The notes beneath the pieces are model-generated. The model saw only the letters and a program-made list of their open reading frames with translations, searched no databases and was not told where the DNA came from. Source: Octopus sinensis (lineage: Eukaryota). From it: a stretch of 64,000 nucleotides of DNA. A program made the translations under genes and the position numbers. How positions within the stretch are numbered: position 1 is the stretch's first letter; each line of letters opens with the position of its first letter. This document shows positions 49,316 to 63,554 of this stretch, one piece after another. Location: the NCBI RefSeq assembly GCF_006345805.1, contig NC_043022.1, positions 15,252,001 to 15,316,000 on the forward strand. The letters run 5' to 3'.

Positions 49316-49490
49316 TAGAAGCATAAAAGAGAAATAAATAAAAAGAATACAACGGGGAGGGGGGTGGAATAAAAGGGAAAAGATGGAGTGGAGGAGAGAA
49401 AGAGAAGATGGAAAATGATAAGAAAGATAGAAGATAGGAGAGAAAGATGAAAGAGAAGGGGAGGGAGGGAGGTGATAAAGATGGACTCAC

Positions 49491-49561
49491 CCATTGAAAC
49501 CAACTTTCATACGAATTGAGTCATCATCTGGTTCCTGAAGCATAATGGAATTTTGAGAAGT
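49491..49561 (-). CDS. aPKC: aPKC exon (71 nt): TSQNSI-MLQEPDDDSIRMKVGFNG; probable start ATG at 49543-49541; PB1 start
   Basis: tttgcag acceptor, GG|gtgagt donor; phase 2 end joins the next exon (GG|G AAC). RMKVGFNG aligns to the PB1 first strand (RVKAYYRG-type) with the conserved Lys. Confidence 0.85.
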
Positions 49562-49674
49562 CTGCAAAGAAACAAAAATAAAAAAGCCAAGAGATAATGA
49601 ATATTCTTCAGATATTGAACATCATTAGCATAATTCATTAAACAAAAACAATCATATACATATATATACATATA

Positions 49675-55168: not shown

Positions 55169-55607
55169 CTCCAGATTATGCATTGAGTTCTATATATCTT
55201 GTTGGCAAAGCCAAACTTATGCATGTATGTGCATACGTGCGTTAGAAGAATGTATAAAATGTAGATAATGTGTTTGTTCAAACACCCCCGTCAGCAAGAG
55301 ACACCCTGGATTCTTTGGGGAGGGGGGTAGAAACGGGTGGCAAGAGGTGGAGGGGGTGGATGATGTGGATAAAAAAAAACAAGATGGAGACCAAGAAAGA
55401 AAAAAAAAACAGAGAAAGACAGTATGGAAGGACAAAAGGAACAAAATGGTTTTAGTGTGGGTGGAAGACTGAGGCGATGTTGACTGCGAATGAAGAGTAG
55501 TAGCAGTAGTAGCAGTGGCAGCAGTAGCAGCTGTATGACGTTGGTTCATTGCATATTGATATATCGATTGCACACATAAACACACAGATTGATTGACTTA
55601 TGTGGAT

Positions 55608-57268
55608 GTGTGTATACATGTTTGTGTGAGAGAGTGTGTATACATGTATGAGAGAAGGTGTATACATGTATGTGTGAGAAGGGATGTATACATGTATGTG
55701 TGAGTGTGTATACATGTATGTGTGAGAGGTCGTGTATACATGTATGTGTGAGAGTGTGTGTATACATGTATGTGTGAGAGAGTGTGTATACATGTATGTG
55801 TGAGAGAGTGTGTATACATGTATGTGTGAGAGTGTGTGTATACATGTATGTGTGAGTGTGTATACATGTATGTGTGAGAGGTCGTGTATACATGTATGTG
55901 TGAGTGTGTATACATGTATGTGTGAGAGAGTGTGTATACATGTATGTGTGAGAGAATGTGTATACATGTATGTGTGAGAGAGTGTGTATACATGTATGTG
56001 TGAGAGGTCGTGTATACATGTATGTGTGAGAGAGTGTGTATACATGTATGTGTGAGAGAGTGTGTATACATGTATGTGTGAGAGAGTGTGTATACATGTA
56101 TGAGAGGAGGTGTATACATGTATGTGTGAGTGTGTATACATGTATGTGTGAGAGAGTGTGTATACATGTATGTGTGAGAGTGTGTGTATACATGTATGTG
56201 TGAGAGAGTGTGTATACATGTATGTGTGAGAGAGTGTGTATGCATGTATGTGTGAGAGGGGGTGTATACATGTATGTGTGAGAGAGGTGTGTATACATGT
56301 ATGTGTGAGAGAGTGTGTATACTGTATGTGTGAGAGAGTGTGTATACATGTATGTGTGAGAGAGTGTGTATACATGTATGTGTGAGAGAGTGTGTATACA
56401 TGTATGTGTGAGAGAGTGTGTATACATGTATGTGTGAGAGGGGGTGTATACATGTATGTGTGAGAGAGTGTGTATACATGTATGTGTGAGAGAGTGTGTA
56501 TACATGTATGTGTGAGAGAGTGTGTATACATGTATGTGTGAGAGAGTGTGTATACATGTATGTGTGAGAGAGTGTGTATACATGTATGTGTGAGAGAGTG
56601 TGTATACATGTATGTGTGAGAGAGTGTGTATACATGTATGTGTGAGAGAGTGTGTATACATGTATGTGTGAGAGAGTGTTGTATACATGTATGTGTGAGA
56701 GAGTGTGTATACATGTATGTGTGAGAGGGGGTGTATACATGTATGTGTGAGAGAGTGTGTATACATGTATGTGTGAGAGAGTGTGTATACATATGTGTGA
56801 GAGAGTGTGTATACACGTATGGTGAGAGAGTGTGTATACTGTATGTGTGAGAGAGTGTGTATACATGTATGTGTGAGAGAATGTGTATACATGTATGTGT
56901 GAGAGAGTGTGTATACATGTATGCGTGAGAGAGTGTGTATGCATGTATGTGTGAGAGGGGGTGTATACATGTGTGAGAGGGTGTGTATACATGTATGAGT
57001 GAGAGAGTGTGTATACATGTATGAGAGAAGGTGTATACATGTATGTGTGAGAGAGTGTGTATACATGTGTGAGAGGGGGTGTATACATGTATGTGTGAGA
57101 GGGGGTGTATACATGTATGTGTGAGAGAATGTGTATACATGTATGTGTGAGAGAGTGTGTATACATGTATGTGTGAGAGAGTGTGTATACATGTATGTGT
57201 GAGAGAGTGTGTATACATGTATGTGTGAGAGAGTGTGTATACATGTGTAAGAGGGGGTGTATACATGT
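55608..57268. repeat. Minisatellite, 26-bp unit tgtatacatgtatgtgtgagagagtg, roughly 60-65 copies
   Basis: Direct periodicity, e.g. units starting at 56341 and 56367. Confidence 0.97.
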
Positions 57269-57321
57269 GAACACATGATTCTCAAAACATGCACATTTAT
57301 GAGTGCACGTGATTTTTATTT

Positions 57322-57895: not shown

Positions 57896-58639
57896 ACCAG
57901 GTGTGCGTATTCTTTACCTTCGCCCACACATACACACGCAATGTGGTAATAGGGTGTGATCACTCGACTTGCCAGAAATAGCAGCTAAATGTCCCTCATA
58001 CTATCAACCAAGACAACACGGACCAACACACACGACGTGGTAACGAGAGAGCCACTCCGTGGTCACTTGACTTACTAGAAATAGCTGCTAAATCTTCCTC
58101 AAATCATGCAATAACCCACATTCGCCAAGGCAACAGAGAACGACACACAATGTGGCAATGTGAGAGCCGCTATATGGTCACTCGACTTGCTAGAAATAGC
58201 AGTTAAACTTCATGTTATGCACAAGTCAAGACAACACAGAACAACATACACACACACACAAACTGTAGCTCAAGAGAGCCATTATGTGGTCACTCGAGTT
58301 AGCAGAAATAGCAGCTAAATCTTCCTCATATCACACAAGTATATACACGTTGCGGCAACATATAAATACAATCACACACACACATGTGAGTCTAGAGAGC
58401 CATTATGTAATTGCTCGACTTACCAGAAATAGCAGCTAAATCTCCCTCAAATCGCACAAGAACACACCAAAGCAACCTAAAGTAAAAACACAGGCCACAC
58501 CATGGGAACTCAATTATGCAGATCAAGAGGCGATTGATAACAATTACAGCGGAGTAAATACTAATTACACTAATTAGAGAGAGAAAGAGGTGTGTGTGTG
58601 TGTGTGTGTGTGTGGACAGAAACACAAACAAAAGCAACA

Positions 58640-59035: not shown

Positions 59036-59251
59036 TACTCTTTAACTTGACTGCGGCCATGCTGGAGCACCGCCTTTAATCGAGCAACTCGACCCCAGGA
59101 CTTATTCTTTGTAAGCCCAGGACTTATTCCATCGGTCTCTTTTGCTGAACTGCTAAGTGACGGGGACATAAACACACCAGCATCGGTTGTCAAGCAATGC
59201 TAGGGGGACAAACACAGACACACAAACATATACACACACACACACACACAC

Positions 59252-59290
<39 letters not shown>

Positions 59291-59457
59291 TACGACAGGC
59301 TTCTTTCAGTTTCCGTCTACCAAATCCACTCACAAGGCTTTGGTCGGCCCGAGGCTATAGTAGAAGACACTTGCCCAAGGTGCCACGCAGTGGCACTGAA
59401 CCCGGAACCATGTGGTTGGTAGACAAGCTACTTACCACACAGCTACTCCTGCGCCTA
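59036..59457 (-). mobile_element. SINE family A
   Basis: Full-length match. Confidence 0.88.
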
Positions 59458-59970
59458 TATACACATATATATGAAAATACATACATACACATACAAAGGT
59501 ACTATAAGAAAGAAAGCTGTAATGACTTAATTTTGTTGTGTATATATGTATGTATATACCGTAATCCCTCGACCATCGCGGGTATTACGTTCCAACACCA
59601 ACCGCGATAGGTAAAAAATCTGCGAAGTAGAAACAGTATTTTTACTCTTTTACTTGTTTCAGTCATTTGGCTGCGGCCATGCTGGAACACCGCCTTTAGT
59701 TGAGCAAATCGACCCCGGGACTTATTCTTTGTAAGCCTAGTACTTATTCTATCGGTCTCGTTTGCCGAACCGCTAAGTTACGGTGACGTAAACACATCAG
59801 CATCGGTTGTCAAGCAATGTTGGGGGGATAAACACAGACACACAGATATATGCCGAAATTGCGAGGATGATCCGGTTCTTGACTGAAGATTGAAGGCTTC
59901 AAATGTCCCGTCCGTGTTTTTTGTATCGTCTTCTAAATGTTTTGCGTTCTTGTCCCAGTTTGTATGTTTT

Positions 59971-60002
<32 letters not shown>

Positions 60003-60091
60003 ATATATATATGTATGTAGGTCCCGGGTTGAGTCGGGGTTAACCACAGTAAATAAGGTACTCAATACATAACAGAGTAAAGTAATTTATT

Positions 60092-60156
60092 TTATAGAAG
60101 GAGCTTCTACAGGACTAGAACTGTTTCATTCAGATGAAATCTTCAGGAAGCTCCTT

Positions 60157-60162
<6 letters not shown>
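60092..60162 (-). ncRNA. Type I hammerhead ribozyme motif
   Basis: Minus RNA: 16-bp stem I, CUGAAGA, stem II UUC/GAA with AUCU loop, GAAA, stem III ACAG/CUGU, GUA triplet. Confidence 0.75.
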
Positions 60163-60193
<31 letters not shown>

Positions 60194-60593
60194 GACGGGC
60201 TTCTTTCAGTTTCCGTCTAACAAATCCACTCACAAGGCTTTGGTCGGCCTGAGTCTATAGTAGAAGACACTTGCCCAAGGTGTCACACAGTGGGACTGAA
60301 CCCAGAACTGACTGAAGAGTCAATCTATACTTTGTAGACAGTGACTTCAAAGTGACATCCTTCAAGCCTTTAAAGCCATTGTTACTTGTGTTCTTGTAAA
60401 AGTTTAATAAATCCTCATCATTATGATTCCACATCCATTTTTCCACGCTTGAATGGATCAGATGGAATGTGTTACAGCAGGTTTTTCTATAGCGGGATGC
60501 CCTTCCTGTCACCAATCTTCCCCAGTTTCCCAGCAACGTAATATTTCTCATCCATGGCCTATCCCAAAAAATAAAACCAAAATATGTAATATA

Positions 60594-61514: not shown

Positions 61515-61911
61515 TTTTACTCTTTTACTTGTTTCAGTCATTTGACTGCGGCCATGCTGGAGCACCGCCTTTAATCGAGCAACTCGACCCCAGGACTTAT
61601 TCTTTTGTAAGCCCAGTACTTATTCTATCAGTCTCTTTTGCCGAACCGCTATGTTATGGGGACATAAACACACCAGCATCGGTTGTCAAGCAATGCTAGG
61701 GGGACAAACACAGACACACAAACACGCATATATATATACATATATATGACGGGCTTCTTTCAGTTTCCGTCTACCAAATCCACTCACAAAGCTTTGGTTG
61801 GCCCGAGGCTATAGTAGAAGACACTTGCCCAAGATGCCACGCAGTGGGACAGAACCCGGAACCATGTGGTTGGTAAGCAAGCTACTTACCACACAGCCAC
61901 TCCTGCACCTA
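61515..61911 (-). mobile_element. SINE family A
   Basis: Full-length match. Confidence 0.88.
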
Positions 61912-63554
61912 TACTCGTTTACTTATTTTTTCTAAAATTTTTGTTGTGTCTTGCAACTTCTTCAATATTTGTTATATCACACACACACACTTTCAGCATT
62001 ATCATTTAATGTCTGTTTTTTATGCTGGCATGGGTTGGACAGCCTGACAGGATCTGGCAAGGCCAGGGGCCATACCAAGGTCCATAGTCTGTTCTTGGTC
62101 TGGTTTCTATAGCTGGAAACCCTTCCTAACACCAACCATTCCACAAAGTGTACTGTGTGATTTTTACATGACACTGCAGTTTCAGGATCTCAATTCTGTA
62201 GTGGTGGGCAGGTCTTCCTGAGACACAGCAATGTGCCACATATCACAGTCCTCTGTCATCTCCTTTGTAAAGCTCAACATTTTAAGATCGGCCCTTCAAT
62301 GCTTCCTCCTGGGTCTTCTTGGGTCTCCCTCTTCCACAAGTTCCCTCCACCTCCTTATGCAACTGTGCTCATCCATTCGCATCAGACAACCAAATCAGAA
62401 CAGTCTTCTCTCTTGCACCATCCACAGAATTCCTCTTATGCCCAGCGTCTCCCTCAATACACCAGCGCTCTTCCACACAGACACACTGACATTGCACATC
62501 CAGCAGACCATACCACCAGCTTCAATCCACTCCAGCCTTCACATGTCCTATATACATACATATACACCTTCTACTATGTATATAGTTAGCTGAAATGTTC
62601 CGTACACTTGACACATAAAAATGTAATAGTATATCTTCCTTTCTATCTCTAACGAGATTCTACTTTACAACGATTTACTTATTTCAATTAAAATCTTTAA
62701 AGTCTGAATCAAAACAGCTGTCAGGGATTATGTCTATTTTTGCAATTAATAAATATAATTACTCTCTATTGATTACTCTATTTTCTTATATAGCTCTGTC
62801 TGGCACCAGTGCGGGTGGCACGTAAAAAGCACCCACTACACTCACGGAGTGGTTGGCGTTAGGAAGGGCATCCAGCCGTAGAAACACTGCCAGATTTGAC
62901 TGGGCCTGATGAAGCCTTCTGGCTTCACAGACCCCAGTAGAACCGTCCAACCCATGCTAGCATGGAAAACGGACGCTAAATGATGATGATGATGATGATG
63001 ATATAGTAGAAATATGTTACAAAAAGAAAATATAAAATATATATATACATGCATACATATATATATATCATCATCAGTTAACATCCATTGTTCATGCTGG
63101 TGGCATGGGTTGGACAGCTTGACCATGGCTGGTAAGCTGGAAGGCTGCACCAGACACCAGTCTGTTTTGGCATTGTTTCCAAAGCTGGATGCCCTTCCTA
63201 ATACCAAGCACTCTGAGAGTGCAATGGCTGCTAAATGTATACGCACCCTTACTATACAGTAATCCCTCGACTATCGGGGGATTCCAAAACCCCGACGTGG
63301 TAGGTGAAAATCTATGAAGTAGAAACAGTACATACAATGCCATTTTCATGTTGGTACCTTGGGCAAGTGACCCCTTTTATAACCCCAGGATAACCAAAGC
63401 ATTGTAAGCACATTTTGCAGCCAAAGAAACTGAAAGAAGCCTGTCACGTGTGTGTGTGTGTCTTGACATTGTATATATATATATATATAATAATTTAATA
63501 AATAAAATATATGCATACATACATACATGTATGTACCTACATCTACATGTATAT

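Follow-up and report, generated by a model that had tools for sequence, protein, structure and literature searches.

The window analysed here, a stretch of 64,000 nucleotides from Octopus sinensis (contig NC_043022.1), carries aPKC exons on its minus strand and, on the same strand, a hammerhead motif embedded in repeats (Table 1). In all four of four runs, which were guessed to be RNA, contigs span the first coding exon of aPKC and continue into one common upstream sequence. The latter occurs once in the genome, at C26:15373191, where it ends at a GT donor 57 kb beyond the window; this upstream exon was found neither in the window nor in the next 20 kb. Because of this single match, the motif is placed on the sense strand inside an intron of about 71.6 kb, extending from 49565 to G000:C26:15373190. 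The original prediction had located the motif ~1.2 kb upstream of a candidate promoter, which is not supported: in the RNA-like contigs, the exon spliced to the first coding one lies 71.6 kb to its right. The fallback of that prediction, an intronic position if the true transcription start lay further right, turned out to be correct. The promoter concerned, near 58.8 kb, was dropped as unsupported for the isoform seen, with the upstream exon outside the window and the next 20 kb. These placements of promoter and intron concern that isoform, and other aPKC isoforms may exist. The first exon of aPKC is non-coding, with ~250 bases ahead of the ~71.6-kb intron.

Table 1. Features of the insertion site and of aPKC in the window
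Feature	Coordinates	Strand	Basis
aPKC first coding exon	49490..49564	-	RNA-like contigs
Host repeat, its internal (TA)n interrupted by two inserts	59640..60300 (approximate)	-	families D7, D8
Second repeat fragment, unrelated to the stub and tail to tail with it	59850..59970	+	at least 40 copies, 93-100% identity
(TA)n target between stub and second repeat fragment	59971..60015	.	sequence
Remainder of the pLTR and the 'tail', reaching about +137, where the long arm of most copies ends	60016..60101	-	
Native hammerhead, element +1 to +51: 6-bp stem I, CUGAAGA, U.U and 3-bp stem II, GAAA, 4-bp stem III with 8-nt loop holding a CUAG palindrome, GUA	60102..60152	-	sequence, family alignment; 60152 is the putative +1
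Predicted cleavage site, after +45	60107..60108	-	sequence and standard hammerhead numbering
Inverted arm, the reverse complement of element +46 to +61	60147..60162	-	sequence, junction copies
(TA)n target left of the insertion on the minus strand	60163..60192	.	sequence

Read directly, the minus strand from 60162 to 60092 has the letters first quoted for it, and a pattern search on this strand placed the intact CUGAAGA core at 60146-60140 and GAAA at 60127-60124. The GUA triplet and the position proposed for the cut agree with the sequence as well. The motif has the conserved CUGANGA, GAAA and UH elements of a type I hammerhead, and every pair of the three stems round the core, with stem I open, is possible in the window copy. 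A loose version of the core pattern is found in the window at chance level (2 observed versus 3.35 expected).

Copies related to the host repeat also lie at 59047-59459 and 61543-61913. The second repeat fragment contains hammerhead-like boxes in reversed order, with GAAA before CUGAAGA. Elsewhere in the window, positions 55493-57300 hold a long tandem array with a 26/22-base period, and positions 57940-58470 hold four diverged direct repeats of ~115 bases (families D11 and D14). The locus is ordinary, no sign of a role at aPKC was seen, and the insertion is probably irrelevant to this gene.

Predicted folding and conservation of the hammerhead

The hairpin formed by the window copy is more stable than its shuffled versions (z = -5.67 against 200 shuffles) because of its outer 16-bp stem, for which 15 of 16 pairs have predicted probabilities of 0.88-1.0. 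The hammerhead fold, however, sits 3.2 kcal/mol above the predicted minimum, and stems II and III are missing from the minimum-energy fold, with probabilities of 0.00 and 0.11-0.13, respectively; stem II is lost because a competing hairpin takes up G12-A13. A search with the Rfam models, which had been proposed as a check, found no hammerhead family in 74 matches at E<=1 over 9 kb or in 15 matches at E<=10 for 136 bases.

Variation was surveyed in 55 distinct copies with native upstream sequence. The core is invariant in them outside N7, its letters having been part of the selection pattern. The stems, nearly invariant within this young family, show no covariation there; N7, loop II and one base of loop III hold all the common variants, and the one in loop III makes the palindrome longer. 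Across published families the stems differ yet still pair (PMC8557442 File S2 table). The R10.1-Y11.1 closing pair of stem II is absent, and all 55 copies have U.U instead. The original prediction had noted U.U and taken it to be unusual; the mismatch is present, but this state is the commonest among the Hydra-clade hammerheads of PMC8557442 File S2, where by our own count it occupies positions 10.1/11.1 in 14 of 25 listed Hydra families.

As had been anticipated, the CUAG palindrome of loop III is suited to dimers. In all five sequences folded as pairs, the predicted double-hammerhead dimer is 3.6-9.4 kcal/mol more stable than two monomers; it is also 0.6-6.4 kcal/mol above the best dimer fold. 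The prediction is that the ribozyme would be a poor cutter as a monomer and would depend on a CUAG-palindrome dimer or the help of a protein, and these energetics fit the weak or protein-dependent cleavage described in PMC4209133 and PMC11167929. The minimal hammerheads of Penelope-like elements (PLEs) described by Cervera and de la Pena in 2014 (PMC4209133) resemble the octopus family in their thousands of solo motifs, close opposite-strand pairs, palindromic helix III region, dimer model and low activity. In contrast to them, the octopus hammerhead has a genuine 4-bp stem III, and the G10.1-C11.1 pair, called highly conserved in that account, is missing from it.

An active intronic ribozyme that cuts the aPKC pre-mRNA and affects its processing, its fold locked by the long stem I, would be in keeping with the position on the sense strand of the intron, with the intact core and with the 16-bp stem predicted to form. 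However, the motif is 97-100% identical to dispersed young copies, its hammerhead fold is disfavoured with stem II absent from the prediction, and its dimer form requires a second molecule. In addition, metazoan PLE hammerheads show no or low cleavage in vitro according to PMC4209133, and a PLE hammerhead in PMC11167929 cleaved only with protein. With this evidence against it, an active ribozyme that acts on aPKC processing seems very unlikely. The motif is a real hammerhead but no locus-specific ribozyme, and it is likely to be passive cargo at the aPKC site.

The 16-bp stem and the insertion junction

Stem I pairs over only 6 bp in native copies, and the outer 10 bp seen in the window belong to an inverted arm. 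Since the last 6 bases of this arm (60152-60147) are also the native 5' arm of stem I, the overlap yields the 16-bp stem. Of the perfect stem I originally described, the predicted pairing stands, but not its reading as a feature of the ribozyme. The native upstream sequence of the window's subfamily has 170 exact matches in the genome and the window's junction has 16. All 16 junction copies are inversions: in three, including the window, a short inverted copy of the sequence from +46 on lies directly against the ribozyme, and the other 13 are mirror images with the long arm starting at +46. In tandem copies, the sequence past the tail runs on into the ORF. Inverted 5' copies are standard for PLEs (PMC8557442).

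The window copy is thus very probably a 147-base stub inserted in (TA)n, with its 16-bp stem an inversion junction. In the simplest reading of this junction, stem I supplied the complementarity by which two arms became joined. For the window copy, the inverted arm ends exactly at the cut site, which is also compatible with a template cut at +46, the cDNA of the short arm having run off the 5' end left by cleavage. Such an origin would account for the inverted arm stopping at +46 in the window copy and two others and for the long arm starting at +46 in the 13 mirror-image copies. However, the 6-bp complementarity of stem I is by itself enough to give this junction, the 16 copies stand against 3,102 tail matches in the genome, and none of 90 long arms sampled without bias starts at +46, so that we regard a cut template as unlikely. 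In such genomes, a ribozyme stem that is very long and 'perfect' can turn out to be an insertion junction, of which the locus is a useful warning.

The parent Penelope-like family

A DNA search of the same genome returned 1,168 candidates, the 40 that were scored being 97-100% identical. Exact matches to the core numbered 3,892 and those to the tail 3,102, with none for the reversed control in either case; both counts take in the two arms of inverted insertions and do not represent numbers of insertions. The abundance of the family is above chance, given 3,892 exact core matches against none for the reversed control. The Penelope-like origin proposed for this type I hammerhead was confirmed by a copy of the window's subfamily located downstream of a 552-residue frame with RT and GIY-YIG (L031). 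The link to Penelope RT ORFs, which the original prediction had set beside a genome-wide copy count as something to be checked, was recovered in copies with the arrangement pLTR-ORF-pLTR. Such units were found in four loci (L184, L185, L186 and L188), with 4.6-5.4 kb between hammerheads. In addition, 54 places extend from the tail in the same way as ORF-linked copies, and most of the 30 such extensions examined enter the start of the ORF. Its ATG lies at +184, where +1 is the first base of native stem I.

An ORF with RT and, at its C-terminus, a GIY-YIG domain is linked to the pLTR at L031, L183 and L185. The element protein has 1,784 homologues at E<=1e-10, with Pfam GIY-YIG in two of three scanned. 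Pfam found nothing relevant on the ORFs of the family itself, and a sequence search of PDB gave no matches at E<=1. No intact full-length ORF occurs among the copies examined, all of which are broken or partial; the longest open frame in them has 688 aa and is frameshifted in the endonuclease.

The family protein contains YRDDGL, with RIRWR in L183 and DKT in L032 (L183 has DKR beside an A-run expansion). In the L185 ORF, a CxCX5C linker occurs without CCHH, CxxC and CxH lie near the C-terminus, and a single cysteine is located between the GIY and YIG positions. Insertions target (TA)n, pLTRs may be tandem or inverted with an optional tail, and the 3' region of the element is rich in microsatellites. 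The Hydra clade of C-terminal EN+ PLEs (Craig et al. 2021, PMC8557442) shares with the octopus family the RWR/RWK motif, DKT and YRDDGL, the CxCX5C linker, the lack of CCHH, the CxxC and CxH near the C-terminus, the (TA)n targets, the tandem and inverted pLTRs and the type I hammerhead. Several Hydra families also have the same ACAG/CUGU stem III (PMC8557442), and A17 is as in Penelope-1_NV and Hydra-1_aMil. By these motifs (PMC8557442 section 11) rather than by an RT tree, the window stub belongs to a young, high-copy PLE of the Hydra clade.

Several features set the family apart. Loop III has 8 nt here versus 1-3 nt in the Hydra table, the unit length of 4.6-5.4 kb differs from the length of less than 3 kb given for the clade, and the two 3' ends lie ~65 bases apart, compared to a described tail of 30-40 bp (all PMC8557442). 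Hydra-1_Obim is a separate family with a different hammerhead, and four exact strings of the octopus family had no hits in the supplement of that paper. On sequence evidence, the element is a new family within a known clade. The Naiad clade, with an N-terminal endonuclease and no canonical hammerhead, was excluded by the C-terminal endonuclease found here. Nematis/Neptune, considered for the Cys linker, were dropped in favour of the Hydra motifs. At L189:6175-7162, a different and more distant Hydra-like RT fragment adjoins a copy of the family.

Animal non-LTR retrozymes (bioRxiv 10.64898/2026.07.22.740005; PMC7229834) likewise carry a type I hammerhead derived from the pLTR of PLEs. In contrast to these tandem hammerhead units without an ORF, the window holds a single stub with an inverted arm, and a parent family with an ORF exists; a retrozyme was rejected for this copy. 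Two other loci of the octopus family do form retrozyme-like tandem/inverted pLTR arrays, with a period of ~422 bases in L191 (G000:C9:87418000-87424000) and ~248 bases in L192 (G000:C16:42874000-42879000). The L192 variant has its loop III palindrome extended from 4 to 6 bases.

Copy boundaries, the extra G and a proposed copying mechanism

The ends of copies were surveyed in the first 90 of 100 listed tail matches, which were picked without regard to their 5' side and aligned to natural reference copies. A single contig arm supplied all of them, and L103/L104 and L151/L152 each look like a duplicate pair. The sharp 5' boundary is the first base of stem I, with 36 of the 90 copies ending at -5 to +8. 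Two copies end at -6 to -128, 17 at +13 to +88, and 35 at or past -129. None of the 90 ends at the cut site (+46), where a pile-up of 5' ends would be a sign of cleavage in vivo. Because 35 copies reach far upstream of +1, read-through RNA or a template jump is required for them. There are two fixed 3' ends, at about +137 for long arms and mostly at +62 to +72 for short inverted arms.

The boundary is often accompanied by an extra G. At -1, all 53 native copies have T, C or A; by comparison, 32 of the 80 AT-flanked junctions at +1 have G at -1, and 19 of these 80 read (TA)n, one G, then +1. The background frequency of G after TATATAT is 111/1,376. As a position control, the first 100 of 175 rows were merged by hand into 65 loci joined to (TA)n. 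Of the 20 loci starting at +1, 14 have a G before them; the corresponding figures are 5 of 13 for starts at +2 and 1 of 29 for those at +3 to +7. Among the rest, two loci reached -1 or -2 and one was ambiguous. On this hand count, the excess at +1 over +3 to +7 corresponds to a Fisher p = 7e-7. Of the 53 native copies, which had been selected for a regional ATAAA, 52 have a TATA-like box beginning at -29 or -28, and the base at -1 is a pyrimidine in 50 of 53, giving a pyrimidine-purine step at -1/+1. In the 58 non-native strands that have their junction at +1, no common leader exceeding one G was seen; their other upstream letters derive from the inverted arm, from the target or from inserts that are not shared.

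In full-length L1 insertions, an extra 5' G is described as a cap signature (PMC11702581). Taken together, the boundary and the extra G in the octopus family point, with fair confidence, to a capped RNA start at the first base of stem I, an assignment built from DNA junctions. For PLEs, published features include hammerheads, inverted arms, tails and a transcription start inside the pLTR. A search of the openly accessible literature found neither a start at stem I nor a cap G for these elements. The start-site signature of the family as a whole is what deserves to be followed up.

Two other origins of the boundary were considered. The pile-up at +1 could come from cDNA that folds back after copying both arms of stem I, or from two cDNAs annealing at the palindrome AGCT. 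Many inverted junctions lie on AGCT at +1 to +4, where microhomology alone could pile up ends; self-priming has been proposed for palindromic PLE junctions (PMC3846280), and fold-back extension would likewise add C to the cDNA, to be read as G at -1. However, non-inverted copies joined straight to (TA)n share the boundary, nearly always with a single G, whereas fold-back would often extend into further bases flanking stem I, and it leaves unexplained both the TATA spacing and the pyrimidine-purine step. We consider this origin quite unlikely. Alternatively, the boundary might be a 3' splice site (AG at +1/+2), with the extra G as the end of an upstream exon or leader. In the Penelope of D. virilis, the 5' end of helix I is where an intron has been mapped to end (PMC4209133), and the native octopus sequence has a pyrimidine-rich stretch ahead of AG. 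Against splicing are the lack of a common leader beyond one G in the 58 strands and the 19 of 80 junctions in which (TA)n, one G and +1 follow each other directly, and it appears very unlikely.

In the capped-start mechanism that we favour, transcription would be driven by the TATA box 29 bases upstream, and the first base of stem I would be the capped start of the element RNA. The enzyme of the element would nick both strands of a (TA)n target, reverse transcription would be primed internally at two fixed sites, and both cDNAs would cross the uncut ribozyme and reach the cap, to be joined head to head or to the target. For the window copy, the two arms are likely to have annealed through the 6-bp complementarity of stem I. 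The junction pattern is a direct observation, from which we infer the start site, the cap and the priming. As a whole, the stub, the inversion junction and this capped-start mechanism make up what is quite probably the best explanation of the locus.

Internal priming with uncut RNA as template has been seen in vitro for an anole PLE (PMC11167929). This element, Anolis Poseidon PAc (Frangieh et al. 2024, PMC11167929), is similar to the octopus family in having two internal RT start sites that match genomic ends, AT-rich targets, a hammerhead near the ORF start and uncut RNA as the main template. However, PAc belongs to a different clade, and its start codon lies inside the ribozyme with priming inside the ORF (PMC11167929), whereas both priming sites proposed here are upstream of the ATG. 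LINE-1 also has an extra G at RNA-5'-end junctions and, through twin priming, inverted arms joined by microhomology (PMC11702581). In contrast to L1, which primes at the RNA 3' end so that copies reaching the cap are full length (PMC11702581), the copies that reach the cap would here be the shortest.

A more tentative and somewhat improbable extension is that the thousands of ~130-base stubs are integrated 'strong-stop' cDNAs. Such a cDNA would start at an internal priming site close to the 5' end, run off at the cap and insert, while long copies would arise by a jump to the RNA 3' end with the ribozyme serving as the terminal repeat. The repeat used for the jump would be +1 to +45, left at the 3' end by cleavage of a downstream copy. 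If true, PLEs would use an LTR-like strand transfer with the repeat made by a ribozyme. The family is a good natural record of how PLEs copy and of what the hammerhead is for, and the start base, the two priming sites and the cap signature that it names are all open to direct testing.

Two further copies show unusual junctions. In L164, a ribozyme copy restarts at +1 right after the ORF start, and in L119 short pieces from +1 are repeated several times. These junctions suggest that repeated template jumps may take place at one base.
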